DNA of 64,000 bases from Escherichia coli (GTDB lineage Bacteria; Pseudomonadota; Gammaproteobacteria; Enterobacterales; Enterobacteriaceae), in NCBI RefSeq assembly GCF_030013595.1, contig NZ_CP122768.1; one strand, given 5' to 3'. A program made the translations under genes and the position numbers. The notes beneath the pieces were generated by a model. The model did no database searches, had not been told where the DNA came from, and was given only the letters and a program-made list of their open reading frames with translations. Shown here piece after piece: positions 1 to 19,736 of this stretch (its first letter is position 1; the number at the start of each line of letters is the position of its first letter).

Positions 1-232
1 AGCGGCGGCAAAGTGGCAGCAGCTACAACGCGGAGCCGCAGCGTTCTCCATCACATTGGCACGTGGACGCGCAGAACTCTACCCCGAAATGCATGGCACG
101 GTAACAGGCTTTAAAAGCGAGATTGATAATCAGGACTGGATTATTGCGAAAGCCGAGCACACCATTGATAACAGCGGCTTTACCACGCAGCTTGAGCTTG
201 AGGCAAAAATCCCGGAATGGATAGCAGAATGA
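1..232 (+). CDS. 3' fragment of a phage late/tail gene, probably P2 gpD-like (runs off window start)
   Basis: Open frame from window start to TGA at 230-232 (..FTTQLELEAKIPEWIAE*); plus-strand, immediately upstream of an ogr-like gene as in P2 (D then ogr). Identification from position and weak sequence memory only. Confidence 0.4.
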   Translation, partial: AAAKWQQLQRGAAAFSITLARGRAELYPEMHGTVTGFKSEIDNQDWIIAKAEHTIDNSGFTTQLELEAKIPEWIAE

Positions 233-396
233 GACTCTTAAATGTATTAGTCCAGACACGTACTAGCGGGCTAAACGGCACAGTCTTATCTGACCATCTG
301 CCCCTGACACAGAGCAGACGGTCCTTGATCTTACCCACTAATAATGGACGCGCGACTAATATAATTTATTGCTTTTTATTTATACCTCACTGAGAT

Positions 397-1032
397 TTAG
401 CGAGCTAATATATTCAAAGAATTTAACAATTGAGTGTCGAGTGTTTCAGTTGCAGGAATCGGTAATCCATTCGCAATGCGGTAATTTTTCACAGACAGCC
501 TTGTGGATGGCCCCATTATGCCGTCAATATTTCCGTTATAAAATCCCCTGTCCAGCAATGCGAACTGAACTCGCATAATCAATCGCTTACGTTTCTCTGC
601 ATCAGAAGCAAGCCCATTACTCGTACGGTTAACCTCTGAAGTTCCAACAGAACTCGTGTTAGTGGTTCTATTATTATCGTTAGAACGAAGTGCACGCACC
701 GAGGAAGAGGACGATGAGGAACTTGCACCTGAACTTGAAGAACCAGATGAACTTGGTGAGCTGTATGTTTTTGGATAATAGGGGGTACTTCCACCATAGT
801 ATCCACCACCTGATGAGGATCTATGAGAGCTATGGCTCCTATGAGAACTATGGCTTCGATGCCCTGCGATATAAAATGGGACTTCCGTGTTAAGTGGAGC
901 TATCACTAAATCATGCTCATTAAGAGTCATACCAGGTAAATCACTCGCTCCTGTAGATGAATCGCTTGCCCATACAGAATTGTTGAGAGCCAAAAATCCC
1001 GGAAGTAGAGCAGCAAAATTAAACTTTTTCAT
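397..1032 (-). CDS. hxsA: HxsA-type His-Xaa-Ser repeat protein (signal peptide, tandem H-x-S triplets, Ser/Gly/Tyr-rich tract, C-terminal peptidoglycan-binding domain)
   Basis: Translation from MKKFNFAALLPGFLALNNSVWA (Sec-like signal) contains HRSHSSHRSHSSHRS, then SSPSSSGSSSSGASSSSSSSS, then a PG_binding_1-like C-terminus (LLDRGFYNGNIDGIMGPSTRLSVKNYRIANGL). Start ATG overlaps upstream gene stop (ATGA). Confidence 0.8.
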   Translation of the reverse strand: MKKFNFAALLPGFLALNNSVWASDSSTGASDLPGMTLNEHDLVIAPLNTEVPFYIAGHRSHSSHRSHSSHRSSSGGGYYGGSTPYYPKTYSSPSSSGSSSSGASSSSSSSSVRALRSNDNNRTTNTSSVGTSEVNRTSNGLASDAEKRKRLIMRVQFALLDRGFYNGNIDGIMGPSTRLSVKNYRIANGLPIPATETLDTQLLNSLNILAR

Positions 1033-2141
1033 AAAATTGGTCTCGGTGATTGATGAAAACGGCCTTTTGAGGAACTGAAATAGCCAGCACAGGAAGGCTT
1101 CTGAGTACATTCATCACATTCTTTTGGATAGTAATTTTTCCAATCAGAGATCGACTGAACAGCAAGCTCCCTAGCCCTTTCAGGAAGATAACACAAAGGA
1201 TAATTAAAAATTGTCAGAGGTATGCCTGACCTGTATGCAGCGTCTATGGCAGAGATTATTTTCTCACTATAACTACTGTGATCAATGAAGATGGTGGACC
1301 AGTTTTTTCGTGCCCAACCGATAGGCTCCAACCCCATAAGGGAAATCTGATTGATGTTGGAGAACACACGGCCAGCGAATTCTACGATATCATCCAATTC
1401 GGTATAGTTAGCCAGTGTAGGAATAACTCTAAGTTCGATATTAATCCCCAAGTTTCCTGCATTGATTAACCCTTTAACCGTTTCATTAAATGCGCCATCA
1501 CTCCCTACCAGATGATCATGCACAAGTGGTCTTGATGAGTAGAGCGGGATACCAAAGGTGATTTTGATCTTTTTGCTTCGCTTTGCCATTTCCTGTGTAA
1601 AGTTGGTATCAGCAAATTTGCGTCCGTTTGTTAAAACATGTAAAGCAGTATCTGGTGAATTCTCGATGATAAAATCAATGAAGTGAAGGAAGTCATCCCC
1701 ATATAGCAAAGGTTCACCACCGCTGACCCCAACAACTCCGTTCAAGCCAAATGAAGCTATAGCAAGAGCTGATTGGGTAAGTAGCCAGTCATCATTTATT
1801 TTCTTTGGTGGCTGCGAACAAAACAGACACAAGTTATTGCAGCGTTCCGTAACTAAGACAGTATTATGATTGGCTTTGCGTGACAGAATAACGCGTATCA
1901 TATTGCCATTGTTGATTATCCCAATATCTCCATCTTCAATTGACTCAAATAATTCAGTGCTAATAACAGAGAAATCAAAGCATGGTGGAATGGCATCATT
2001 ATTGCCTTCAGCAACTACTAGCAAATTGGGCAAAAAGAATAAAGGGTTCACTGGTTTTTGTTTGCATAACCGATAGAACCCCGTGGGCACGTTCTCTGTA
2101 GAAGCAAAATGAAAGATATCGTTCCTGATAACCTCAGACAT
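1029..2141 (-). CDS. Radical SAM maturase of the His-Xaa-Ser system (HxsB/HxsC-type; which of the two is not resolved)
   Basis: 370 aa ORF with CNNLCLFC (CxxxCxxC radical SAM cluster) and a C-terminal Cys-rich region (CDECTQKPSCAGY); sits between the other rSAM gene and hxsA with overlapping stop/start codons. Confidence 0.8.
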   Translation of the reverse strand: MSEVIRNDIFHFASTENVPTGFYRLCKQKPVNPLFFLPNLLVVAEGNNDAIPPCFDFSVISTELFESIEDGDIGIINNGNMIRVILSRKANHNTVLVTERCNNLCLFCSQPPKKINDDWLLTQSALAIASFGLNGVVGVSGGEPLLYGDDFLHFIDFIIENSPDTALHVLTNGRKFADTNFTQEMAKRSKKIKITFGIPLYSSRPLVHDHLVGSDGAFNETVKGLINAGNLGINIELRVIPTLANYTELDDIVEFAGRVFSNINQISLMGLEPIGWARKNWSTIFIDHSSYSEKIISAIDAAYRSGIPLTIFNYPLCYLPERARELAVQSISDWKNYYPKECDECTQKPSCAGYFSSSKGRFHQSPRPIL

Positions 2142-3522
2142 ATGCCCATCCTTTTAGCATCTCAGCCTTCGAACCACCCTCTGAGATGCAGTTCATCAGA
2201 TACCTGAACATCCCCTTGTGATATTGACAAAACGTTGAACGACTCCTATCACCGACAGGCTCACCCTGTACACTTATGTTCTGGCATGGATCTGAACCAC
2301 AAAATGGTTGATATGCACATGTATCACAACCTGGCAGAGCAAAATTGAACGATGAACTCAATACTGCGTTATAGTAAGGACTATCAGAAAATGATAGCGT
2401 CTTAACTTCACCCGCACTGAACTCCGTTTCAGGATTCACCTTCTGCAACATACGGCTCTCATCGCTACCATATACTCGACCGTCATAATTGAAAAGAATA
2501 CTGTTAAGCACGACTCCACTTGGAGACTTTAAATCCGCATAACCACTAAAACCGGGATTGAAGATCCTTTTCAGATGAATGGAGGCCGAATGTTCCACAA
2601 CCCTTATCCCTTCATTATTAATCTTAAGGATTTCATCTATCAACGAGGCATAGAAGCTGAAGTATTCGTCCATAGAAAAGGTGAAAGAAGCTTTTTGTGC
2701 AAACCCATAGGGACTAACAGGTCGGATAAACATGTCCTTGAGACCAAGAGACAAGTGAGCCTGAACAATCGATTCAGGACGTCTGATAAGCTCTTTAGTA
2801 ACTGTAGTAACCGTTGCAACGCGGCCAGCACCTAAAGAGTGTTTGATAGCCTCTACCCCTGACACTGTTCTACTGTACGCAAGCCCACGACCAAGAATTC
2901 GATTACTGTTGTGAACAACTTCCTCACCATCAAGCGACACAGAGAACGTTATGTTCCGGTCTCTCGACCATTCAATCATATCCTCATTCAAGACAGACAG
3001 ACTTGATGCCACCACCATCTCAAAATTGGTTCTTCCCAGCGTTTCAGCACATTGATCATAGATGCTCTGAATTAAATCAAACCGCAAGAGAGGCTCCCCA
3101 CCCTGTATCTCTATTTTGTAAGGTGGCGTTGATAGTTTTTTAATAGCCGAAATAATATCGGGGATGAGCTCAGGATTTAGGTCGTAACCTGAGGCATTAA
3201 CAGAAGCTCTACTAACCTGGCAATACTTGCATGTATGGTCACAACGTAATGTGGGTACAATCATGAAAATTGGCCTGACAGCCAGTTCATTCATCAATCG
3301 TTTTGCAAAAGCAGAACTTAAAGCATAGGGAGTTATAGCAGATGAGCTTTCACTGGTTATGAAAAGCTTACTTTCTAGCACGTTTGATTGCTCCGAACTA
3401 ATTCGCTCATCAGAAAGATCAATAAGGTCTTGCTCACCAATGAAATGATGAAAACCTGCAAGGTTGCTTATAAACACCTGTCCATTAGGCAATCTGTCAA
3501 AATTAAATGGCATCAATTCCAT
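2134..3522 (-). CDS. Radical SAM/SPASM-type maturase of the His-Xaa-Ser system (HxsB/HxsC-type)
   Basis: 462 aa ORF with CDHTCKYC radical SAM motif and C-terminal auxiliary-cluster cysteines (CDTCAYQPFCGSDPCQ...FCQ); stop overlaps next gene start by 8 nt; start overlaps hxsD stop (TAATG). Confidence 0.8.
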   Translation of the reverse strand: MELMPFNFDRLPNGQVFISNLAGFHHFIGEQDLIDLSDERISSEQSNVLESKLFITSESSSAITPYALSSAFAKRLMNELAVRPIFMIVPTLRCDHTCKYCQVSRASVNASGYDLNPELIPDIISAIKKLSTPPYKIEIQGGEPLLRFDLIQSIYDQCAETLGRTNFEMVVASSLSVLNEDMIEWSRDRNITFSVSLDGEEVVHNSNRILGRGLAYSRTVSGVEAIKHSLGAGRVATVTTVTKELIRRPESIVQAHLSLGLKDMFIRPVSPYGFAQKASFTFSMDEYFSFYASLIDEILKINNEGIRVVEHSASIHLKRIFNPGFSGYADLKSPSGVVLNSILFNYDGRVYGSDESRMLQKVNPETEFSAGEVKTLSFSDSPYYNAVLSSSFNFALPGCDTCAYQPFCGSDPCQNISVQGEPVGDRSRSTFCQYHKGMFRYLMNCISEGGSKAEMLKGWAYV

Positions 3523-3836
3523 TATGAAAGCCTCTCATCAACACTGCGAAGCACTTTATGGACAATAGAGTCTCTCAACGCCCCTGTTTTATGCTGTAGC
3601 TTTTCTCGCAAAGAGTAATCATTAAGCAGCCTATCGAATTCATAAAGGAATTTGGGATTATCGTTTTCAAAAGAGATTATCCAGTGGGAAACGTCTTCAT
3701 GGAGTTTCCATCGAGTAAGCGGAGTCATCCAATATAGACTATTGCGTATAACCCATTCAGAATATAGTTCTTTCTCAAACACTCTTTCGCTCATTGCAAT
3801 TATCTTCCAATACAAATATTCATGATCAGCAACCAC
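3522..3836 (-). CDS. hxsD: HxsD-type small protein carrying the LLNDYxLRE signature
   Basis: 104 aa ORF containing FDRLLNDYSLREKLQ; first gene of the four-gene minus-strand operon. True start may be an internal Met (MSERVF). Confidence 0.75.
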   Translation of the reverse strand: MVADHEYLYWKIIAMSERVFEKELYSEWVIRNSLYWMTPLTRWKLHEDVSHWIISFENDNPKFLYEFDRLLNDYSLREKLQHKTGALRDSIVHKVLRSVDERLS

Positions 3837-3871
3837 TTTAAAGCGGATTTTTCCTATGGCAACAATAATAT

Positions 3872-3974
3872 AACATATCCATAGATATGTTACAGATGCC
3901 TTGTTTCCCGTTGACTAATACATCACAACGTTAGTAATGGCTATCACAATTGTGAACTTCCACTTTTCACACAA
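3872..3974. promoter_or_regulatory. Divergent hxsD/ogr control region with two dyad-symmetric elements
   Basis: AACATAT-N6-ATATGTT palindrome at 3872-3891 and TGTGAA-N9-TTCACA dyad at 3954-3974, both in the 210-bp gap between divergent hxsD and ogr starts. Confidence 0.3.
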
Positions 3975-4046
3975 GACAAGCTGTTAATTGGAATCTGTAT
4001 CAGTACAACTTAGAATATCGGAAGCACCACAGTAAGGGAGGTCGCT

Positions 4047-4307
4047 ATGTTCCGTTGTCCGCTTTGTGGCGCATCCGCCCGAATCCGCACCAGTCGTCCG
4101 GAAAATGATTCAAACACCGTGCGGCAAAAGTATTACCAATGTAACAACCTAGAATGCGGCGTATGCTTCTCAACACTGGAAGCTTTCCATAAATTCACAT
4201 CAAAACACGCCTCCGGCGCTCACTCTTCAGAAGGTATCCCGTGGCATGAACTGCCAGCTTCACACAAAGGAAACAATCAGATGAGTTTGCCCTTACCTCA
4301 AAATTAA
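4047..4307 (+). CDS. ogr: Ogr/Delta-family zinc-finger late-gene transcription activator
   Basis: MFRCPLCGASARIRTSR...YYQCNNLECGVCF matches the P2 Ogr pattern (MFHCPLC..ARTSR...YHQCQNVNCSATF); C-terminally extended relative to P2 Ogr. Confidence 0.75.
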   Translation: MFRCPLCGASARIRTSRPENDSNTVRQKYYQCNNLECGVCFSTLEAFHKFTSKHASGAHSSEGIPWHELPASHKGNNQMSLPLPQN

Positions 4308-4367
4308 CAGGCAGAATTGCCGGAGTAACAAAAAAGAGATAGATTACGCGCGGGTGCCTTTCGGCTG

Positions 4368-4631
4368 ATGGTCGGAGGGAATACCCGAAGGCCAGATGTG
4401 GAAAGGCCCCGGAAAACATTTCTGTTTAACCGAGGCCCTAACCGCATTACCTTGACAAGTGAAAGGTTAGCGCCTCTCCGGAAAAGGAGCAAGTGCTATG
4501 TCGCAAAAATCGCTTACGGCCATCATGTTCTGCGTGACGGCAATCCTCATCATCTGGATGTTGCACGGTTCGCTGTGCGAAATACGGATGAGATTCTGGG
4601 GAGCGGAGTTTGCGGCGTTCTTACAGTGTAA
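4368..4631 (+). CDS. mok-like reading frame overlapping hok (translational coupling frame of a hok/sok locus)
   Basis: 87-codon ORF in a different frame that starts upstream of and overlaps the hok-like frame, the arrangement typical of mok. Confidence 0.4.
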   Translation: MVGGNTRRPDVERPRKTFLFNRGPNRITLTSERLAPLRKRSKCYVAKIAYGHHVLRDGNPHHLDVARFAVRNTDEILGSGVCGVLTV

Positions 4632-4638
4632 GCAGTAA
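4498..4638 (+). CDS. hok: Hok/Gef-family type I toxin, 46 aa
   Basis: ATG at 4498 preceded by GGAGCA; peptide MSQKSLTAIMFCVTAILIIWMLHGSLCEIRMRFWGAEFAAFLQCKQ has one hydrophobic helix and the Hok-type C-x-T...SLCEIR motif; the 5' element GGGTGCCTT (4352-4360) is complementary to AAGGCACCC (4695-4703), resembling tac/fbi pairing. Confidence 0.7.
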   Translation: MSQKSLTAIMFCVTAILIIWMLHGSLCEIRMRFWGAEFAAFLQCKQ

Positions 4639-4724
4639 GGAAACCGCGACGGGGGAGCAATCCCCCGTCAATCGGTTGCCAGGGTAAGGTCGATAAGGCA
4701 CCCTATCTCACAGACATGAACAAC

Positions 4725-4760
4725 AAACCCGCAACGTAAAAACTGCGGGTTTTCTTTTTG
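4725..4760 (+). terminator. Rho-independent terminator downstream of hok
   Basis: aaacccgcaacgtaaaaactgcggguuu hairpin followed by a T-run. Confidence 0.6.
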
Positions 4761-4902
4761 GTGTCCTTACTGACTTGAAACGGTGATCAGACTATAAGAC
4801 AAAGCCCACAATGTAGCGGGCTTACTCCCCTCTCCCTCCACTGAATGTGGACACATGGTGGAACGAAGATATATAAAACATTATAAATCAATCGGTTACT
4901 GA

Positions 4903-4928
4903 AAGAAAAAAGGCCGCAGAGCGGCCTT
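4903..4928 (-). terminator. Rho-independent terminator ending the minus-strand lambdoid gene set
   Basis: aggccgcagagcggcct hairpin with an A-run on plus strand (T-run on minus strand) immediately 3' of the ORF ending at 4949. Confidence 0.55.
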
Positions 4929-4948
4929 TATGGTTTATTGACAATTGA

Positions 4949-5164
4949 TTAAGACGTGTGGCACTTATTGGCACACCAATAGCAACCATTCACCCGGGAA
5001 TATCCTTTGGCCTTTGCCTCTGTTACCGCCGAAGAACAATCACTATAGTAACCAAGGTAATCGCGGTTAGCTACAGCAGGAAGATATGAACATTCCTCAG
5101 CATGCACCTCATGATCGCCATTGCTCTGAGCATTTTTGTTCACGTAATAGTGTTTAAAAACCAT
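4949..5164 (-). CDS. Hypothetical small Cys-rich phage protein
   Basis: 71 aa ORF, terminator immediately downstream; no family recognised. Confidence 0.4.
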   Translation of the reverse strand: MVFKHYYVNKNAQSNGDHEVHAEECSYLPAVANRDYLGYYSDCSSAVTEAKAKGYSRVNGCYWCANKCHTS

Positions 5165-11670: not shown

Positions 11671-12342
11671 CTATGAAAATGCCGCCTTTTGTTTTGAACG
11701 TGTTCCCTCCACCAACAATAAAGCTTCACCATCCAGCCGATGAAAAATGTGTTTCATTGCAACCCAGTGACCAGTAAATGTCTTGGACCAGTTTTTGGTT
11801 GTTACTCCCACCAGTAACGCCAGTTCCTGGTATTCGTAACCTTCCCCACCAAAAAGCTCAGCTTTTACCGCCTGCGCCGCCAACCAGATCAACGTCTTCA
11901 GGCGCACCAGAGTTTTTCCTGCAATTTTTCTGGTACCGGATTGAGCATTAAATTCAGTCCACGCCCACTGCGTTATCGCGATCTGATGCTCCCAGCAAAT
12001 GCTACCGCTGTAACACCACAGCAGCCAGGCTTTATGATGTTCTTCAAGAGACAGAACGGCGCGTCGCCATGATGATGTCGAAAACTCAACCGGACTGACC
12101 AGGGCAATTGATGAACCTTTCACCAGCGATTGCTTTCCCGGGATCGGTGGATTATCCAGCGTTACTATTTTTCCAGTGACCTTATCGCGGTACCGGATTT
12201 TTTTACGTCTGTAACGCCCTGTATTGAACATGGCATTCTCCTGCCAGGCTTCAAGCTGACCTTTTGTTGCTCCACTCAAATCAGCGGTGGCGATCATGAG
12301 CTGCTCACGCACAAACTGTAAATACTGGTTATTCATGCGCAC
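11671..12342 (-). CDS. Probable late antiterminator (Q-like)
   Basis: 223 aa ORF directly upstream of a promoter/terminator pair and downstream of rusA, the canonical Q position; family assignment by context only. Confidence 0.45.
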   Translation of the reverse strand: MRMNNQYLQFVREQLMIATADLSGATKGQLEAWQENAMFNTGRYRRKKIRYRDKVTGKIVTLDNPPIPGKQSLVKGSSIALVSPVEFSTSSWRRAVLSLEEHHKAWLLWCYSGSICWEHQIAITQWAWTEFNAQSGTRKIAGKTLVRLKTLIWLAAQAVKAELFGGEGYEYQELALLVGVTTKNWSKTFTGHWVAMKHIFHRLDGEALLLVEGTRSKQKAAFS

Positions 12343-12692
12343 TCCAGTTCTGTGATTTTTATCCCCAGCCGACCACCGGGAACAACCTGACCGCGCATAA
12401 TATTAACTTCATCAAACTGCTCATCGTCGATAAGCAGTCCCGCATGTGTCAGCGCATCCAGTGGTGCCTTCAGGATATTGTCCAGGTCGCGGCGGCGCTT
12501 ATCCGGTGGCTCTGCAATAATTTTTATTGCCAGCCTTCCGGACAGGTTTAATTTCAGTCGCTGCTGGCGAACAATAAGCGCCACATCACGGCGATAACGC
12601 TCACCGGCTTTTGATACAAAATATGTGCTGCCACGACGTCGCCAGTAGGTGTTCACCGTTGGCGGGTAAGGCAAAACAAATTCTATCCCCAT
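12333..12692 (-). CDS. rusA: RusA-family Holliday junction resolvase
   Basis: 119 aa; PYPPTVNTYWRRRG...RRRDLDNILKAPLDALTHAGLLIDD matches RusA conserved motifs. Confidence 0.85.
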   Translation of the reverse strand: MGIEFVLPYPPTVNTYWRRRGSTYFVSKAGERYRRDVALIVRQQRLKLNLSGRLAIKIIAEPPDKRRRDLDNILKAPLDALTHAGLLIDDEQFDEVNIMRGQVVPGGRLGIKITELECA

Positions 12693-12704
12693 CAGTAACC
12701 TCTT

Positions 12705-13754
12705 TTATCCGAGTACGCCTGTTGCAAAGGCGTGATCAAGAAAACGAAAAATTAAATCAACCTGAGAACCATGTTTTTCTTCGAATGCCTGCGGATCCGC
12801 ATGAAGCTCGTTGTGATGCTCCCGACACAGCGGCAACGTAAAAATATCGTGGGCCTTTGTTCCCATCCCTCCCTGACCGTGACCAATCAGGTGATGGGGA
12901 TCGTCGGCTGGCTTACCACAACACGCACACGGCTGTGTCTTCACCCAGCGTGTGTATTTCTCATTTACCCAACGGCGACGTTTAGGTCGCTTCATGAAAG
13001 ATTCCGGAGACTCAGGATCAACGGCAATGCTGACCACCGTCTTTTCCTGTGGTGTGTTCTGTTGCTGGTGGACGTGAGGCAACGGCGCAAGATTTTTTGT
13101 GCGCTGCTTCAGTATGCTGGTGGCGGTCTGCTCTCCCGGTACGATGTCGCTTTCGCGGTAAACCGTGCGGATTTTTTCCGCACGTAATCCCAGAGAACGA
13201 CGTAATACTGCCTCCGGTAGCGCGTCCGCCACCTGATTGCAGACCGCCCACCAGGATAATTCAGCCAGCGATAATTCCCGTTCCTGTGCACCACTTATTG
13301 CGTGACGTATGACGTCAATCATCCAGGCTGTCAGATTTTGTTGAGCAAGCTGCCCGAGTGATTCGGATGTCTGGTCGCGCAGCTGGTTGTCGCAGTGCCA
13401 GCACAACAACATTGCGCCGGTACCGTAACGATGTATGACGGTTTCACTGTGGTGATAGTCTCCATGAGGCCACTGGCAGGATTTAACATGACGCAGGAGC
13501 CAGTCAGACAGTGCGCCAGCGCCGCCAGCAGCACGAATCACACGCTCATCGCTGAAAAACGGCAGCAATGTTTTATCTTCCGCCAGCGGCTGGCGAACGG
13601 CAGGAACGACTCCGGACGGCATACCGCGCATGTTTTTCGGTTCCGGCTCCACCAGCACCCTGCCGTTATGGAATACCTGCATGGATTCACGCCCCGGCTT
13701 AAGGACCACCAGCCCGAGTTCCGGTACCGGAACAGGTCGAAGTAATACCCGCAC
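12705..13754 (-). CDS. DUF968-like lambdoid nin-region protein with C-terminal Cys/His cluster
   Basis: 349 aa; C-terminus CACCGKPADDPHHL...CREHHNELH; family assignment from memory of YdfU-like prophage proteins. Confidence 0.5.
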   Translation of the reverse strand: MRVLLRPVPVPELGLVVLKPGRESMQVFHNGRVLVEPEPKNMRGMPSGVVPAVRQPLAEDKTLLPFFSDERVIRAAGGAGALSDWLLRHVKSCQWPHGDYHHSETVIHRYGTGAMLLCWHCDNQLRDQTSESLGQLAQQNLTAWMIDVIRHAISGAQERELSLAELSWWAVCNQVADALPEAVLRRSLGLRAEKIRTVYRESDIVPGEQTATSILKQRTKNLAPLPHVHQQQNTPQEKTVVSIAVDPESPESFMKRPKRRRWVNEKYTRWVKTQPCACCGKPADDPHHLIGHGQGGMGTKAHDIFTLPLCREHHNELHADPQAFEEKHGSQVDLIFRFLDHAFATGVLG

Positions 13755-13755
13755 G

Positions 13756-14028
13756 TTACCTCCAGATGCGTTGCTGGAATGTGCGGGACGGACGCGGCGG
13801 GCGTTCGGAATAAGGGAGCCTGACGTAGATTATCCAGTGATGGTAGTCGAGGCTAAGGGCTTTCTTAAACTCATACCCACGTCTGCGGTAGTTATGAATC
13901 AGCCATTCGGCCTGTTCTTCAGTGCAGGGATCGTGCTGATACCAGTCATATTTGAATGTGTGAGAACACCGCCCTTGCCTGCTGGCAGGGGCGGTATCAG
14001 AATTGTGATGTTTGGTATTGTGCGCCAT
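13756..14028 (-). CDS. Hypothetical nin-region protein
   Basis: ORF; likely start MAHNTKHH. Confidence 0.35.
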   Translation of the reverse strand: MAHNTKHHNSDTAPASRQGRCSHTFKYDWYQHDPCTEEQAEWLIHNYRRRGYEFKKALSLDYHHWIIYVRLPYSERPPRPSRTFQQRIWR

Positions 14029-14163
14029 CGGTTTTCTCTGCTGGCGCAGCAGGTGCCAGTTGTTCAAGCTGGCGTGCGGCAATATTGTCTCTGATTTCTG
14101 TTGTCGTCAACAGGCAACGTGCTATCATCGAATGGTGTTCTATCCTACTCCGTGAGGTTTACC

Positions 14164-14421
14164 ATGCGTACAACCCAACAATTCAGCATTACATTAACTA
14201 ACGAAATGGCTGACATGGTGCGCGCCCGTGTGGCTTCCGGTGCCTATGCTTCAGAAAGCGAGGTCATTCGTGAAGGGCTTCGCGCACTGAATGAGCGCGA
14301 TAAAGCAATCGAAGCGTGGTTAACGCATTCAGCCGCCCCCTCTCTTGATTCTATCCGCGAAACCCCAAACAACGGACGCTCCATTTCACAGGTTCGCGCC
14401 GCGATTCGATCCGGGAAGTAA
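14164..14421 (+). CDS. parD: ParD-family antitoxin (ribbon-helix-helix)
   Basis: 85 aa; MRTTQQFSITLTNEMADMVRARVASGAYASESEVIREGLRAL typical ParD; immediately upstream of a ParE-like gene. Confidence 0.8.
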   Translation: MRTTQQFSITLTNEMADMVRARVASGAYASESEVIREGLRALNERDKAIEAWLTHSAAPSLDSIRETPNNGRSISQVRAAIRSGK

Positions 14422-14426
14422 TCTGC

Positions 14427-14726
14427 ATGACATATGAAGTCATCATTACTCCTGAGGCCGAACAACAAATAATCAACCTGCACAGGTATATAACGGAGAA
14501 AGCAGGGAACGTCATTGCTGACAATTATGCCAATGCGCTTCTTGATTATCTTGATGGGTTTTCTACATTCCCGCATCGGGGCAATAAACGCGATGATATT
14601 CGCCAGGGGATGCGGGTAACTCATTTCCGCCACAGAACGATTATTGCTTTTGCCGTTGATAGCAGAAAAGTCTTTATTGTCGGTATCTATCATGGTGGGC
14701 AAAGTTATGAAACCGATTTCTTATAA
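14427..14726 (+). CDS. parE: ParE/RelE-family toxin
   Basis: 99 aa; starts 6 nt after parD stop; a hairpin terminator follows. Confidence 0.75.
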   Translation: MTYEVIITPEAEQQIINLHRYITEKAGNVIADNYANALLDYLDGFSTFPHRGNKRDDIRQGMRVTHFRHRTIIAFAVDSRKVFIVGIYHGGQSYETDFL

Positions 14727-14807
14727 ACTTTTACCCACATCATTCCGGTGTTAGAATTAACCGTCCGCCCCCTCTCTTACTGGCGGATTCGTAGGCTATA
14801 TAAATCA

Positions 14808-14845
14808 AAGATCCCGGCTCATGTTTGTGTCGGGATCTTTTTTCG
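14808..14845 (+). terminator. Rho-independent terminator after parDE
   Basis: gatcccgg..ccgggatc hairpin followed by TTTTTT. Confidence 0.6.
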
Positions 14846-14850
14846 GCGAT

Positions 14851-14934
14851 TTATCCCCAGCGGCAAATCGAATACACCACCAGCGCCACCGCCATCGCAA
14901 TTCCTACCGTTGTGAATGCTTCAGGCCAGGTCAT
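14851..14934 (-). CDS. Possible 27-aa hydrophobic peptide translationally coupled to the upstream gene
   Basis: ATG overlaps stop of the 114-aa gene (ATGA); peptide [27 protein letters not shown]. Below the ORF-track length cutoff, so speculative. Confidence 0.25.
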
Positions 14935-15275
14935 CGTAAAATATCCTCCACGCTTATCAGTCCGTTCCGCTCCAGATAACTCATCGCCTTATCCGGTAAT
15001 TTGCAGTCTGGCTTCGCTTTCCTCAGTTGCCAGGTTAACTGCTTTACCAGCATGGTTAACTCATCGACCAGACGCTGATATCCCACTGGTTTGTATTCAT
15101 GCAATTTACCGGCTGGCTCTGCTGCCAGCGATACCAGTGCGATTTCCAGAACAGCAATATCCATCTTATATGTGCGGATGATGTCATGGTCGATTGTGCC
15201 CGGTATGCACAGTCTCTGTGCTTCAATAGTCTCCTCTGCGTGAGCTATTAACTGCTCTCTGGTAAAAGTCGTCAT
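14931..15275 (-). CDS. Hypothetical phage protein
   Basis: 114 aa ORF overlapping the HNH gene stop by 4 nt. Confidence 0.4.
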
Positions 15276-15637
15276 GCCGTAGCCCCTTCTTGATATTTTT
15301 CAAACCAGAACACAACTGGGTCAGATTTCATTTCAACCAATCCCATACGAACCAGCGCTTTGCCTTTCCCGGACGCAAGGAATTCACGACGACCATCACT
15401 GATAATTCGCCGATAATCTTCCAGACTACTGCAATGCTTGTGCAGATTGCATGGGTGGCATGCCGGAACCATGTTGGATATATCGTCACGTTCCTGGTGA
15501 AGCATATTTCCATCAAAACGAATGACCGGTTTTACATGGTCTGCATGCCACTTTTCGCCAAGTTCGCAGCCGCAATAAGCACAGCGACCGCCGAACTTCA
15601 TGCGCAGCTCTGCACGTTGTTTTTTCGTCAGTGCCAT
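15272..15637 (-). CDS. HNH endonuclease
   Basis: Start MALTKKQ with AGGAAA RBS; CAYCGC...HADHVKP...N...[11 protein letters not shown] Cys/His-Asn-His motifs. Confidence 0.7.
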
Positions 15638-15638
15638 A

Positions 15639-15857
15639 TCAGCTTTCCTTATACGGATTAATTTTATTGTGCAGTGTGTTGAACGACGCCCACACCACGT
15701 CGTTATACAATTCAATAACTGGCTCAATTATTTTCACGATAAACCAGACCAGTAATAGCGGGGATATCGGTATCATCAACACGATAAATATAATGAGAAA
15801 CAAAAATTCTGTCGCTCTACTTTTTCTCGGATATTCTTTTCTGAATAATGTAGTCAT
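15639..15857 (-). CDS. Small membrane protein
   Basis: 72 aa with one long hydrophobic segment. Confidence 0.35.
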   Translation of the reverse strand: MTTLFRKEYPRKSRATEFLFLIIFIVLMIPISPLLLVWFIVKIIEPVIELYNDVVWASFNTLHNKINPYKES

Positions 15858-15889
15858 TTCTTACCGCCCTTTCGGGCGGCCTCCTGACA

Positions 15890-16102
15890 TTAATCATTGT
15901 GATAACTCATAGTTTCATTTGCAGCATCAACTGGATCAACATCCCACCAGCAATAATTTTGGTCGAGTCCTTCAGGTGTCCACGGCTCTAATTCATTTTT
16001 TACCGCATTCTCGTCACCAGTAATTTTAAAAATCTGCTCAGAAAATTTCCTCACCCACTCGTTATATTTTTCCGCATTAATGGTTTTCTGTGTATTTAAC
16101 AT
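15890..16102 (-). CDS. Hypothetical phage protein
   Basis: 70 aa ORF. Confidence 0.3.
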   Translation of the reverse strand: MLNTQKTINAEKYNEWVRKFSEQIFKITGDENAVKNELEPWTPEGLDQNYCWWDVDPVDAANETMSYHND

Positions 16103-16152
16103 AGATATGCCTCCAGTTAAGGATTTGATTTTATTTACAGTGCTAAATTTAA

Positions 16153-16509
16153 TTATTCAGTTCTGGATTTTGTCGCCCTGCGTATCCGCGCTTTCGCGTT
16201 ACGCTCAATCTGAATTAACTTTTCTATATTTTTCCGTCTTTCCTGTTCCTCCTGGCGCAATAGCCTTACATCATCTGCCAGTCTGGTTTCTCTTTTCGCC
16301 ACAGAGAGCATCCAGTCAAACGGCTCCACAACTGCACCGCAGATTTTACAGCGGACCTGACGCTCTTTTTCGTCAACCCGAACAGAGGCGTGATGACAAT
16401 ATGCTCTTTCCGATGGCTCATAAAGAAAATTAACCTGATTACGTGGGTCATCCTCTTTTACCGGAAATAAAACGATATTGCTTAACTCATCTTCTGGTTT
16501 TATTTCCAT
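16153..16509 (-). CDS. Hypothetical phage protein with Cys pair (possible zinc ribbon)
   Basis: Start MEIKPE with GGAGAAG RBS; CKICG motif. Confidence 0.4.
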   Translation of the reverse strand: MEIKPEDELSNIVLFPVKEDDPRNQVNFLYEPSERAYCHHASVRVDEKERQVRCKICGAVVEPFDWMLSVAKRETRLADDVRLLRQEEQERRKNIEKLIQIERNAKARIRRATKSRTE

Positions 16510-16566
16510 GCTCTTCTCCTTTGATGTGAATGCCAGCGGTAATTGAAGCCTGATAGCTAATTTCAT

Positions 16567-16989
16567 TCACAGTATCGCCTCCTGAAATTTACCCTGATAG
16601 AAAGCCAGTACACGCTGCATAGCTGCGCTCTTCCGGCACTCGCTACAGATTATGTTCTGACGCCTGTCGTAGCGGCGTATTTCTCCGTCTGGTAATGACC
16701 AGATAAGGTCCGGATCAACCACAGATGTTTTCTTCAGATTTGCCCTTGAGAGTTTTTTGCGGGCATTTTGCCAGTCCTTACGCGCCTGCGCTGACGGGAA
16801 TAACCCGTAACCAGAGTTGTATACATCGCCGCTGGCAACCAGCTCTCTTGCGAGAACGCTCATCAGATATCTTGTTGCCCCAGTTTTAGCTTCCAGTTGT
16901 CGTAACGTCTCTCGCCCGCTCTGGCGTACGAGATCAACAATCTGCCCTTTAATTTTTTCCCGCTCTTCCTGTGTAAATACTTTTGCCAT
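16567..16989 (-). CDS. Hypothetical phage protein
   Basis: Start MAKVFTQ with GGAGGG RBS. Confidence 0.4.
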   Translation of the reverse strand: MAKVFTQEEREKIKGQIVDLVRQSGRETLRQLEAKTGATRYLMSVLARELVASGDVYNSGYGLFPSAQARKDWQNARKKLSRANLKKTSVVDPDLIWSLPDGEIRRYDRRQNIICSECRKSAAMQRVLAFYQGKFQEAIL

Positions 16990-17005
16990 AAGCCCTCCCC
17001 TGGAA

Positions 17006-17731
17006 TCACTTTTCCGACACAATACGACTGGAGGAATCAACAATCTGTCGGACAATATCCCGGTGCTTGTTCAGCTCCCGCAGCGCGGCGCAGACTCGCT
17101 CCCACTTCTGGACATGACTTTTCGCCCGGCGCAGTTCGCGGTTTGCCATATGCAGCGATGGTAAAATCAGGCCATTCGCTCGCGTTTCAGTGAACGATGG
17201 CAGTGACTGCACAAGGTCCGCCACAGTTTCTGTTTTAATTTCCTCCTGTGTTGCCGCTTCCTGTACTGGTAACGCAACACCGGCTGGCTGAGGAAAGGCT
17301 TTACCAGATGTTTTCGCTACCGATACAACTTTCGGCTCTGCTGGTAAATTACCGTCCGGCAGGCAGTAACGAAATTTACCGTTCTGATTTACGCGAATCA
17401 GACGACCTTTGCTGATGGCCATAGCCAGCGATGAGTTCACCCTGCGGGAAGTAATTCTGAATATCAGTGCAAGTTCATCAGCCGCTTTAGGGCCATGCTG
17501 TTCAATCGCCTCGATCAGCATTTGCGCTGTCACTTTAGAAGCCTGTGCCACAGATGCGTTTTCGTCGGTTTGAGTCAACCACCACATCGGGCCCTTGTTA
17601 TCAGCTTCCCCGCGACGCTTCAGTTTCCACAGCTCGTTAATCGCCTCATCCCGGGTCATTCCCAGACGTGCTGCCACTTCCTGGGAAGAGGCTTTTCCCA
17701 TTGCTTTCAGTGCGTCAAAAACGGTCTCCAT
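17006..17731 (-). CDS. Hypothetical phage protein (nin/replication region)
   Basis: Start METVFD with GGGAGG RBS; 241 aa. Confidence 0.4.
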   Translation of the reverse strand: METVFDALKAMGKASSQEVAARLGMTRDEAINELWKLKRRGEADNKGPMWWLTQTDENASVAQASKVTAQMLIEAIEQHGPKAADELALIFRITSRRVNSSLAMAISKGRLIRVNQNGKFRYCLPDGNLPAEPKVVSVAKTSGKAFPQPAGVALPVQEAATQEEIKTETVADLVQSLPSFTETRANGLILPSLHMANRELRRAKSHVQKWERVCAALRELNKHRDIVRQIVDSSSRIVSEK

Positions 17732-17765
17732 TAAAATTTCCTCCCGGTAAAAATTACTTCTCAAC

Positions 17766-18431
17766 TCAAACAAAACCAGCCGCTTTCCGGCGTTCATATT
17801 CCTGTTTCAGCAACTCAATTGGCGTTGGTCCCGACGGGTGTTTGGGTGCCGCCAGTTGTCGCCGGACTGGCGGAATGCTCAGGCCATTACCAACATGCTT
17901 TGCCCATTTCGTCAGTTGCCATTCTGCAAGCCGTTTTAACTCCCCTTCGGTCATCTGGCGCTCAATCCCCTTTGAACGCATCTCGAGGCAAATGTGATAC
18001 AGCACAGGCTGAGACCACGGGTACTTATCACTTCCGTCGTATCGCCAGGACTCATTGCGCCAGCGGCGGTACTCCTCCATCACAGCATCCACCGTCAGAC
18101 CAAATGGATTGGCTCCGCTTTCCGAAATCAGCGCCACAAACTCAGCCAGGTCCGGAGGCCATGTTTCACCCGCCCGGCAGCGGTCCATGCACTGGCGGCA
18201 GACCTGCCGGATTTGCTGCTCAGTCATCGCGCCAATCTGTGCAATCCAGAGCTTCGAAGGTGCGGCCCCGTTCTTCTGGGTCCAGCGGTTCGAATAAACC
18301 TCCCCCATGAGTTCCCACAGCTTCCAGGCCGTTTCCGTCGCTGATAAATCCGTTTTCACGTTCCCACTGCTCACGTGCTGCCCGAATTTCCTGAACTGCT
18401 CGTGATGCGGTGCCACCTGGTGCTGCTGCAT
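17766..18431 (-). CDS. Replication protein P-like (helicase loader)
   Basis: C-terminal region resembles lambda P (YPWSQPVLYHICLEMR.. vs YPWKSNAHYWLVTNLY..); strong RBS AAGGGGG before ATG at 18431; start overlaps the O-like frame by about 210 nt, so start or O end is uncertain. Confidence 0.55.
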   Translation of the reverse strand: MQQHQVAPHHEQFRKFGQHVSSGNVKTDLSATETAWKLWELMGEVYSNRWTQKNGAAPSKLWIAQIGAMTEQQIRQVCRQCMDRCRAGETWPPDLAEFVALISESGANPFGLTVDAVMEEYRRWRNESWRYDGSDKYPWSQPVLYHICLEMRSKGIERQMTEGELKRLAEWQLTKWAKHVGNGLSIPPVRRQLAAPKHPSGPTPIELLKQEYERRKAAGFV

Positions 18432-19245
18432 GGTTTACCCCCTTGCTGACTGGTTTAACCTGCGCCCTGACGTGATTTACGTGACGGGCGAATTTCTGCT
18501 CCCACTGAATCTGCGTGAACACTTTCCCCTCCGCTGCCCAGTAGTCCCGGAAGGCTGCAAATTCAGCTGGTGTAAATTCCGGCTCAGGCAGAGCCACTCC
18601 CCACAGAGCAGCCCGTCGTCGAAAATCCGGCGACGGATGCCAGCCATCGGTCATCGGAAATTTCCCGATGGGTTCGCTCATGCCGTCCAGATATTCGGGC
18701 TCCGGTGTCTGCGATGGCGTACCGTTCGACTCACTGGTCGTAGCTCTCTCGCGCACGCGCGCGTTATGTGTGGGGTTTAATTCTTTATCTGTATCTTTAT
18801 CTGTCGTGACTCGTCGTGACATGTCGTGACATATGCGTGACTCGTCGTGACACCCCTCATTCTGTTTTCGTAATTTTTCCCTCTCGCGCTGCGCTCTCTT
18901 GCGCTCTGCCGGGGATTTCGCGGTTTGTGAAACGTTGCCATTGTCCTCTTTCAGTACCTGGCGTTTTTCCCATCCAGTGATTAAATCACCATCAAGTACC
19001 CGCCCCTGCATCGTCTGCAAAATTGAATCAATTACCTCTTCTGTCACGTCGAGCGCACTTGCCAAATCTTCTGTCGTGACATCAATGTGACCTCGCGTGA
19101 CATTTCGTGACGCGCTCACCAGGAGGTGGATATACACTGCCATCACTGTTGCAATTGGCTGCCCTGACACCCTGGCAATTGTTCGCCACTTAGGGTCATT
19201 TGGCATGTCATGCCATAATCTGAGCCAAGCGTTAGCCATACTCAC
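18220..19245 (-). CDS. Replication initiator O-like protein containing the origin iterons
   Basis: 341 aa ORF directly upstream of P-like gene; two clusters of GTCGTGAC-type direct repeats inside the coding sequence, as with ori in lambda O. Confidence 0.55.
   Translation of the reverse strand: MSMANAWLRLWHDMPNDPKWRTIARVSGQPIATVMAVYIHLLVSASRNVTRGHIDVTTEDLASALDVTEEVIDSILQTMQGRVLDGDLITGWEKRQVLKEDNGNVSQTAKSPAERKRAQREREKLRKQNEGCHDESRICHDMSRRVTTDKDTDKELNPTHNARVRERATTSESNGTPSQTPEPEYLDGMSEPIGKFPMTDGWHPSPDFRRRAALWGVALPEPEFTPAEFAAFRDYWAAEGKVFTQIQWEQKFARHVNHVRAQVKPVSKGVNHAAAPGGTASRAVQEIRAAREQWERENGFISDGNGLEAVGTHGGGLFEPLDPEERGRTFEALDCTDWRDD
18801..18852. repeat. Iteron cluster 1 (putative replication origin)
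   Basis: Five tandem approx 10-bp units ending in CGTGAC, preceded by an AT-rich tract. Confidence 0.6.
19070..19113. repeat. Iteron cluster 2
   Basis: Four further GTGAC-containing repeats. Confidence 0.45.
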
Positions 19246-19310
19246 CTCTTCTGATACCGAATCTTTTTACTCACGAGTTGCCGGAAGTGATTCGATATGG
19301 CTATTGTCAG

Positions 19311-19736
19311 TCAATGTACTGCCACAGCATTTCCTGCCGGGCCACCACGGTTCATCTGATTGAAACCGGCGATTGCCACTGCGACAAAATCATCAGCGTC
19401 TCTCACCAGTCGCTCCCGCGTCTCCACCAGCTCCCGAAAATAAGCTGAACTGTGGCTGCGCATTCTGGCCACCAGCAAAGGTGGCATTGCCTTTTCGATC
19501 GCTGGTAACAACGTCTGAATTTTTTCAACTGCATCAGGGGTGTCTTTCTCTACCCAGCGGAAAATTTTCTGGGTATTGCGAGCCAGGGCTTCCGGATGGC
19601 TATCGTCATACAGTTCAGGAAACGTCATACCCAACTCAAAATAAGCCTGGGTTATTCCAGCTGCTGGAACTTTTTCGCCATCAGGACGCGCCCAGGCATT
19701 CATCGCCATGCGGATGTGTTCATGCTTGATTTTCAT
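19311..19736 (-). CDS. YdaT-like protein (CII-position gene downstream of cro)
   Basis: 141 aa ORF in the position and size of Rac ydaT. Confidence 0.4.
   Translation of the reverse strand: MKIKHEHIRMAMNAWARPDGEKVPAAGITQAYFELGMTFPELYDDSHPEALARNTQKIFRWVEKDTPDAVEKIQTLLPAIEKAMPPLLVARMRSHSSAYFRELVETRERLVRDADDFVAVAIAGFNQMNRGGPAGNAVAVH

Follow-up and report, generated by a model that had tools for sequence, protein, structure and literature searches.

Small HNH endonucleases of bacteriophages have been described in several settings. Those that serve DNA packaging, typified by HK97 gp74, reportedly co-occur with the HK97-type terminase, which combines a Terminase_1 TerL with a P27-family TerS (this is said to be a result of Kala and colleagues from 2014). 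Free-standing HNH homing endonucleases, including T4 MobE, I-TevIII, and I-HmuI, constitute another group, and minimal HNH domains have been characterized as strand-specific nickases with a specificity of 3-7 bp (Xu and Gupta, 2013; PMC3592412). The “other HNH” genes of RB49 and phi1 were placed among the putative homing endonuclease genes in an earlier count (PMC2993671), which we infer to include the RB49/phi1 member of phrog_2118, the protein family considered here. Among lambdoid phages, DUF968 was described as composed of an Orf-like part and an HNH part (PMC4118853), and a survey published in 2025 noted that HNH genes occur sporadically in the early operons of lambdoid phages, outside the recombination modules (PMC12315714). 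A search of the literature found nothing that links an HNH endonuclease to the nin region or to DUF4014, and no member of phrog_2118 with a demonstrated activity or role.

The gene described here lies in a stretch of 64,000 nucleotides of Escherichia coli DNA (contig NZ_CP122768.1), the whole of which is referred to below as the window. It is predicted to encode a small zinc-finger HNH (His-Me finger) DNA endonuclease of family phrog_2118, and it is located in the nin-equivalent region of a Rac-like lambdoid prophage, an assignment that follows from its position between the genes for replication protein P and antiterminator Q and on the same strand as both (Table 1). “Nin region,” the name given to this location in a preliminary description of the sequence, is thus a fair label for the locus.

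Table 1. Coordinates in the window of the HNH gene, its parts, and the surrounding prophage features.
Feature	Position	Strand	Basis or remarks
Predicted HNH endonuclease ORF	15272-15637	minus	121 aa plus TGA stop, ATG start; intact; identical to RefSeq WP_001229296.1
Predicted zinc-finger HNH (beta-beta-alpha-metal) catalytic core, residues 17-68	15434-15589	minus	
Conserved C-terminal tail of 15 residues, also a putative mosaic recombination joint	15275-15319	minus	
Nin-equivalent region holding the HNH gene	11671-18431	minus	Annotation of prophages L001 and L003, 99.8-100% identical here; Pfam and PHROG scans
Replication protein P	17766-18227	minus	Same strand as HNH
Antiterminator Q	11671-12336	minus	Same strand as HNH
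DUF4014 protein, 72 aa, upstream neighbor of HNH	15639-15857	minus	Pfam E=6e-24
114-aa hypothetical protein, downstream neighbor of HNH	14931-15275	minus	WP_000206826.1, phrog_660
ParD/ParE toxin-antitoxin pair, directly downstream of the HNH block	14164-14726	plus	RefSeq annotation of identical sequence

The product carries the motifs CAYCGC and HADHVKP, residue N55, and one further motif of 11 residues, all of which had been recognized in the preliminary description, and it matches the Pfam HNH model PF01844 above threshold (28.2 bits against a cut-off of 21.4, E=2.2e-6, residues 19-68). The best PHROG is phrog_2118, which is matched over the full length of the protein (E=8.8e-57, residues 1-120); the second best is phrog_1035 (2.8e-12), one of the “endonuclease VII” PHROGs. 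The features of the HNH superfamily are present, namely the catalytic D-H pair, the structural N, the metal-binding N/H, the [CxxC]2 zinc site, and the beta-beta-alpha fold. In an alignment of 44 diverse members of the family, C19, C22, C60, C63, D33, H34, N55, and N64 are invariant, as are K67, R76, F110, and E113. H68, with which the preliminary description had closed its motif set, varies in the same alignment, so that the motifs stand as described except for this final histidine. A protein search recovered 700 homologues at E<=1e-3. Comparisons with relatives at 77-98% nucleotide identity gave pairwise dN/dS values of 0.015-0.18, with synonymous sites saturated. Because the Pfam score is above threshold, the phrog_2118 match is strong, homologues are numerous, and dN/dS is low, the reading frame is a real gene under strong purifying selection, and neither a chance occurrence of motifs nor a decaying fragment.

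An AF2 model of the 121-aa protein (pLDDT 91.7) consists of an HNH core and a short helical tail only, with no separate DNA-recognition domain. By sequence, the closest solved structure is that of the Gme HNH nickase (4H9D, E=2e-4), and fold searches with the model returned generic HNH domains. No recognizable added domain or informative fusion was found in the longer relatives among 150 family representatives; two of these, P0137 and P0206, match the profile repeatedly, in four and three stretches, respectively, and resemble repeated HNH modules. In HNH enzymology, residues in the positions of D33 and N64 are expected to be metal ligands and that in the position of H34 the general base. By comparison with the superfamily, a structural zinc would be held by C19, C22, C60, and C63, a catalytic divalent metal would be bound by D33 and N64, and the attacking water would be activated by H34, with N55 and N64 completing the HNH motif. 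The absence of a recognition domain, together with the behavior of characterized minimal HNH nickases (PMC3592412), suggests that duplex DNA would be nicked or cut in a metal-dependent reaction at short, frequent sites. By this analogy, the protein is probably a nickase.

The surroundings of the gene suggest when it might be expressed. From P toward Q, the order of genes is P, DUF1627, DUF977, two hypotheticals, DUF4014, HNH, and the 114-aa gene, after which the region continues past the ParDE pair, on the opposite strand, through two small ORFs, DUF968, and RusA to Q. On the minus strand, P is preceded by the racR/ydaS/ydaT immunity genes and then a DnaT-like O analogue, and Q is followed by a methylase, holins, and an endolysin. 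The TGA stop of the DUF4014 gene lies 1 nt before the ATG of the HNH gene, the Shine-Dalgarno sequence of which (AAGGA, 15646-15650, 8 nt 5' of the ATG) falls within the 3' end of the DUF4014 gene; the HNH stop and the start of the 114-aa gene overlap as ATGA. Candidate promoter and terminator sites in 13700-19400 were no more frequent than in shuffled sequence, providing no sign of a promoter or terminator specific to the HNH gene. The gene probably belongs to the same delayed-early rightward transcription unit as the replication genes, and the spacing of stops and starts suggests that its translation is probably coupled to that of both neighbors.

The preliminary description remarked that no packaging genes were in view, and it considered that the nuclease might be the remnant of a packaging module. 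In that case, it would be a displaced component of the module, a gp74-like terminase cofactor that had lost its terminase. Packaging genes are indeed absent from the window, which could be taken as favoring such a history, but the cause lies entirely in a break in the prophage. DNA searches showed that 4907-25000 is 99.8% identical to an intact lambdoid prophage located beside yccA (L003) and that a second prophage, L001 of strain ETEC1732, matches 14900-16200 with 100% identity. The resemblance to L003 ends leftward at 4907, and 1-4935 corresponds to the end of a P2-like prophage that carries hxsABCD, ogr, and hok; in other strains, this end abuts ihfA. The lambdoid and P2-like homologies have 29 bp in common, a terminator-like hairpin, and the break lies ~0.6 kb from the position at which Nu1 starts in the intact sibling. 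The lambdoid element is therefore truncated or rearranged at about 4907-4935, where it is joined to the P2-like prophage end, and this is the reason that the window contains no packaging genes.

The intact siblings also have this early HNH gene in the nin region; a distance of 9-11 kb separates it from their terminase genes, which belong to two unrelated and complete packaging modules. L003 has a lambda-type Nu1/A terminase without an adjacent HNH gene, and L001 has a P27-family TerS and a TerL preceded by their own gp74-like HNH protein of 116 aa. The latter belongs to phrog_144 (2e-40) and has a C-terminal HNH domain (residues 66-112), whereas the nuclease of the window matches phrog_144 at 1.8e-6 only and has an N-terminal HNH domain (residues 19-68); a BLASTP comparison of the two proteins gave E=0.037 over 35 residues. 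Since the same early nuclease accompanies two unrelated packaging systems, one of which has an HNH protein of its own, its derivation from a packaging module is excluded for practical purposes. That the gene is intact and under selection also argues against a remnant.

The contexts of relatives were surveyed in the 80 closest viral loci (at least 60% identity), in which genes were called as crude greedy ORFs. A recognized terminase gene adjoined the HNH gene in none of the 80, in a scan that may have missed small terminase subunits of unrecognized types, and the view that the nuclease stands alone, rather than beside a terminase, is borne out on this scale; the close relatives in these loci are not terminase-associated. 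A phmmer search with the gp74-like HNH protein of L001 found no match in the same loci. Terminase genes were recognized within about 6 kb in 15 loci, at a minimum distance of 3 genes or 1.2 kb. Most of these 15 loci (12) belong to compact temperate phages, in which the early-right operon runs into the gene for a Terminase_2 small subunit; the start of this gene is 1.2-3.9 kb downstream of the HNH gene (<2.1 kb in 11). A closer association is seen in Bas79-like siphoviruses, where ~180 bp separates a homologue of 49% identity from the downstream gene for a 147-aa protein, which is followed by a Terminase_3 TerL; the homologue is thus located just upstream of a putative TerS/TerL pair. Both arrangements could be read in favor of packaging, but Terminase_2 and Terminase_3 enzymes package by the headful mechanism and do not belong to the HNH-dependent HK97 class. 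The Bas79-like arrangement is left as residual evidence that packaging roles should not be denied wholesale to that subclade. For the gene in the window, the sibling prophages, the family assignment, and the context census led to rejection of the remnant explanation, which is largely refuted and to which we attach almost no likelihood.

The same survey revealed no conserved partner gene. The 80 loci contained 71 distinct neighborhoods of two genes on either side, and no cluster of neighbors was present in more than 21 of them. The commonest immediate neighbor was DUF4014, in 15 loci. A Pfam scan of representatives of 149 neighbor clusters found integrases, DUF551, DnaT, DnaB, Ead/Ea22, YdaS/T, DUF968, and lysis proteins.

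A role for the nuclease in recombination or replication is suggested by several genomic contexts. In this explanation, the protein would be an early nuclease, a kind of “mini-Rap,” which nicks or debranches DNA for recombination-dependent replication and acts beside the recombination functions of the nin region, Orf/NinB, Rap/NinG, RusA, and DUF968. Among relatives that were looked up individually, those located in the nin region are found in a Klebsiella prophage, three Yersinia prophages, and HK225. In the window, the gene is near DUF968 and RusA, and in the three Yersinia prophages it comes immediately after NinB, the stop of which overlaps its start. Elements from Salmonella and Comamonas carry it near RdgC and an exonuclease. 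In the T4-like Krischvirus, it directly follows the DNA ligase gene and is kept in all 59 near-full-length matches to the ligase-HNH segment. The eiAU homologue sits between DNA polymerase and helicase, the Sasha homologue follows a primase and a C5 methylase, and that of Caulobacter phage RW is in the early region. The phages with relatives in DNA-metabolism clusters are mostly virulent. The long-term and strong purifying selection, a weak match to NinG, and that to the “endonuclease VII” PHROGs mentioned above are also in keeping with a helper function. Against it, the nuclease coexists with NinG in the Klebsiella prophage, and it bears no relation to gp47, the HNH protein of the ES18 recombination module. 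In addition, homing endonuclease genes also favor DNA-metabolism neighborhoods, so that the association does not discriminate between the two. Membership in the NinG/Rap family (PF05766) was rejected, as the match is restricted to the core and scores 18.2 bits (E=0.0024), under the Pfam cut-off of 25.4. Kinship with ES18 gp47 was likewise rejected for lack of similarity, and ES18 gp38, which adjoins DUF4014, is also unrelated. A helper role of this kind is regarded as possible, somewhat on the doubtful side.

Early-left locations near int are found in ArgO145, Comamonas, Aquabacterium, Pantoea, and Bcep176, and the early-left region of ArgO145 carries the same block of toxin-antitoxin, 114-aa, HNH, and DUF4014 genes as the window. 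In Streptococcus phage Javan133, the homologue is found in a region of early type, where a C5 methylase gene comes directly after it and an integrase is ~2.5 kb away. A further possible explanation is a nuclease for defense, exclusion, or counter-defense, one that would cut competing phage or host DNA, possibly with methylation of the phage DNA as protection. This explanation could draw on the accessory location of the gene beside the ParDE toxin-antitoxin pair, the occurrence of methyltransferases within about 3 kb in Sasha, Pantoea, one Salmonella locus (L013), ArgO145, eiAU, Javan133, and Bcep176, and weak PADLOC matches to Septu PtuB (3e-8). However, the PtuB matches are limited to the HNH core (residues 6-79) and the PtuA ATPase is absent; no NCBIfam model was reached (TIGR02646, 21.8 bits against a cut-off of 52); and a methyltransferase homologue occurs within 6 kb in just 7 of the 80 close loci, in none of them fewer than 6 genes away. 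Furthermore, the gene is in a lytic early operon and not beside the repressor, and it is therefore expected to be silent in the lysogen. No neighbor of the HNH gene gave a significant PADLOC match that would identify a defense partner, the only hit being Csx27 for DUF4014 at E=0.004. Assignment to a known defense system, for which the candidates were the weak core matches to PtuB and PDC-M01B, was rejected because a partner gene is missing, and a restriction-like pairing with a methyltransferase was rejected on the basis of the distances just given. A defense function is thus considered improbable.

In eight of the loci examined, homology to the window takes the form of gene-sized islands, in which 95-98% nucleotide identity starts 4-13 bp before the HNH start and ends 5-18 bp after the stop. 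As homology in several phages is confined to within 4-18 bp of the ends of the reading frame, the HNH gene is a mosaic cassette of one gene that moves between unrelated phage backbones. Members of a subfamily with ~61% protein identity share with the window only the first 105-113 nt of the gene (82-94% identity), and two of the loci also share the last ~50 nt; these common ends suggest intragenic recombination joints in this subfamily. The 15 C-terminal residues of the protein, which include the sequence PVVFWFE, are conserved throughout the family, and they also end unrelated “EaA” proteins of 55-61 aa in PhiR49_2 and 689R5, in which DNA homology to the window stops at about 15316-15322. In E. 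coli 042, PhiR49_2, and 689R5, the same 114-aa gene is preceded by other cassettes, with a 55-aa ORF (read as an ORF only) at the “EaA” position in E. coli 042. A search with the joined flanks found both flanks together in 369 records. In the rows inspected, the flanks bracket either the HNH gene (762 bp span) or an alternative cassette of two genes (838 bp span), and an empty slot between DUF4014 and the 114-aa gene was not found among these rows. Mosaicism in units of one gene is characteristic of lambdoid nin and ea genes as a whole and is not specific evidence of mobility driven by a nuclease. Ordinary lambdoid mosaicism would account for the patterns as well as nuclease-driven spread would, and homing is not established.

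Taken as a whole, the evidence makes it reasonably likely that the gene encodes a stand-alone, active, early nuclease that does not serve packaging and that acts as an autonomous cassette. Its most likely role, as a weakly held inference, would be that of a free-standing nuclease of homing-endonuclease-like or competition type, one whose nicks in the DNA of the host or of a co-resident phage would promote recombination. The cassette behavior, the patchy spread across unrelated types of phage, and the convention under which such genes were listed (PMC2993671) are points for a homing-like role. Points against classical homing are the lack of a domain for recognition of a long target and the presence of the gene at many different insertion sites in place of one cognate site, as well as the fact that no empty allele was seen in the inspected rows and that the gene is fixed in Krischvirus, in all 59 matches. 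We lean slightly toward the homing-like or competition role over that of a recombination or replication helper, which is nearly as likely.

A broader reading of the family may also be entertained, although it is rather unlikely to be correct. The phrog_2118 proteins may be conserved autonomous early nucleases with one job shared across very different phages, including lambdoid prophages, P22-like phages, Krischvirus, and phages of Edwardsiella, Vibrio, Acinetobacter, and Caulobacter, and they may be neither selfish nor concerned with packaging. Candidates for the shared job may be interference of phage against phage, counter-defense, and nick-primed recombination-dependent replication. If this were true, the job would be one that no current annotation captures.

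For the window itself, the importance of the gene as a routinely annotated accessory nuclease is small. It was already known as a sequence, WP_001229296.1 being annotated “HNH endonuclease” in the sibling RefSeq genomes; the original observation was correct and the biology is ordinary. The useful correction is that an HNH gene situated away from a terminase is not in itself evidence of a decayed packaging module. The family is large and strongly conserved, with 129 clusters at 50% identity at E<=1e-30 and 1416 at E<=1e-10, and a functional study would fill a small gap in the biology of lambdoid and T4-like phages.

Comparison with known systems places the HNH protein of the window as an ordinary member of phrog_2118 that has nothing to distinguish it. 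According to tblastn, ArgO145 gp11 (YP_009907876.1), from an Stx phage, is 100% identical to it. HK225 gp55, which is 61% identical, is encoded in the nin region beside DUF4014 as well, and the Krischvirus protein (Phi1/RB49 ORF212) is 42% identical over its full length. With the terminase-associated HNH proteins of the HK97 gp74 type, the protein shares a small size, a [CxxC]2 zinc site with an HNH core, and probably a similar nicking chemistry. It differs from them in family (phrog_2118 as opposed to phrog_144) and in having its HNH domain at the N-terminus instead of the C-terminus, and its gene is not adjacent to a terminase and coexists with a true gp74-like HNH gene in L001. The family, moreover, co-occurs with lambda Nu1/A, Terminase_2, Terminase_3, and T4-like phages, which is not the HK97-type pattern.

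The free-standing HNH homing endonucleases T4 MobE, I-TevIII, and I-HmuI resemble the phrog_2118 family in their HNH core, in being encoded by self-contained genes found in many backbones, and in their occurrence in DNA-metabolism neighborhoods. The likeness is limited by the size of the protein, which at 121 aa lacks an extra DNA-binding module, and by features of the family, for which there is no single cognate site, no empty allele was found, and the gene is fixed in Krischvirus. Lambda Rap (NinG) and DUF968, finally, share with the HNH protein a location in the nin region, an HNH-type zinc-finger motif, and the weak similarity to the NinG profile. In contrast to Rap and DUF968, the HNH protein is half the size and falls below the NinG gathering threshold, and it is found together with NinG in Klebsiella and with DUF968 in this window.

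The C-terminal 15 residues of the HNH protein also terminate unrelated "EaA" proteins of 55-61 aa in PhiR49_2 and 689R5, where the "EaA" genes precede the same 114-aa gene that follows the HNH ORF. Because this tail is common to the HNH protein and to otherwise unrelated proteins, a mosaic joint lies inside the coding sequence. In E. coli 042, the equivalent slot is taken by a 55-aa ORF. In the subfamilies of L084-L105, the first 105-113 nt of the HNH gene (compared with window 15525-15637) are retained at 82-94% nucleotide identity, although protein identity is only ~61%. In L084 and L085 the final ~50 nt are common as well. This sharing among the subfamilies suggests that recombination has occurred within the gene.

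Features of the window and of compared loci
Feature	Location	Strand	Remark
His-Xaa-Ser system, complete	window 397-3836		cargo beside ogr, P2-like element
Prophage junction	window 4880-4960, join at 4907-4935		overlap of two homologies
DUF968 protein, 349 aa	window 12705-13754	-	phrog_96 "HNH endonuclease", E=2e-175
ParD/ParE toxin-antitoxin (TA) pair	window 14164-14726	+
HNH C-terminal 15 residues	window 15275-15319		comparison: L010 2464-2649, L012 3372-3539, L110 1697-1864
Antisense ORF, 123 aa	window 15290-15661	+	overlaps HNH ORF
Terminase_3 large subunit with intein	L098 8750-11281		related viral contig

The antisense ORF, which slightly exceeds the HNH gene in length and led greedy ORF calling astray in related loci, is probably not a gene. 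Among database relatives, four separate stretches of P0137 (593 aa), which has an N-terminal transposase-type helix-turn-helix domain, and three of P0206 (389 aa) match the HNH family profile, and these matches suggest proteins built of multiple tandem HNH modules. The L098 intein, which splits the terminase gene product, contains Hint and LAGLIDADG homing-endonuclease domains.

At the prophage junction, the lambdoid element ends abruptly and is fused to the ogr/hok end of the P2-like prophage, an end that adjoins ihfA in other strains. A 29-bp terminator-like hairpin, AAAAAGGCCGCAGAGCGGCCTTT, is where the lambdoid and P2-like homologies overlap, and the arrangement suggests an inter-prophage rearrangement or inversion, or an assembly join. 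The His-Xaa-Ser cargo of the P2-like element comprises hxsA, hxsC, hxsB and hxsD (radical-SAM maturase genes).

The nin region that holds the HNH ORF encodes a second HNH-type protein, the DUF968 protein, which combines an Orf-like N-terminus with a CxxC...HH zinc-finger nuclease motif; the RusA gene lies directly downstream of its gene. The block consisting of the TA pair, the 114-aa gene, the HNH gene and the DUF4014 gene is also carried by Stx phage ArgO145, in its early-left region.
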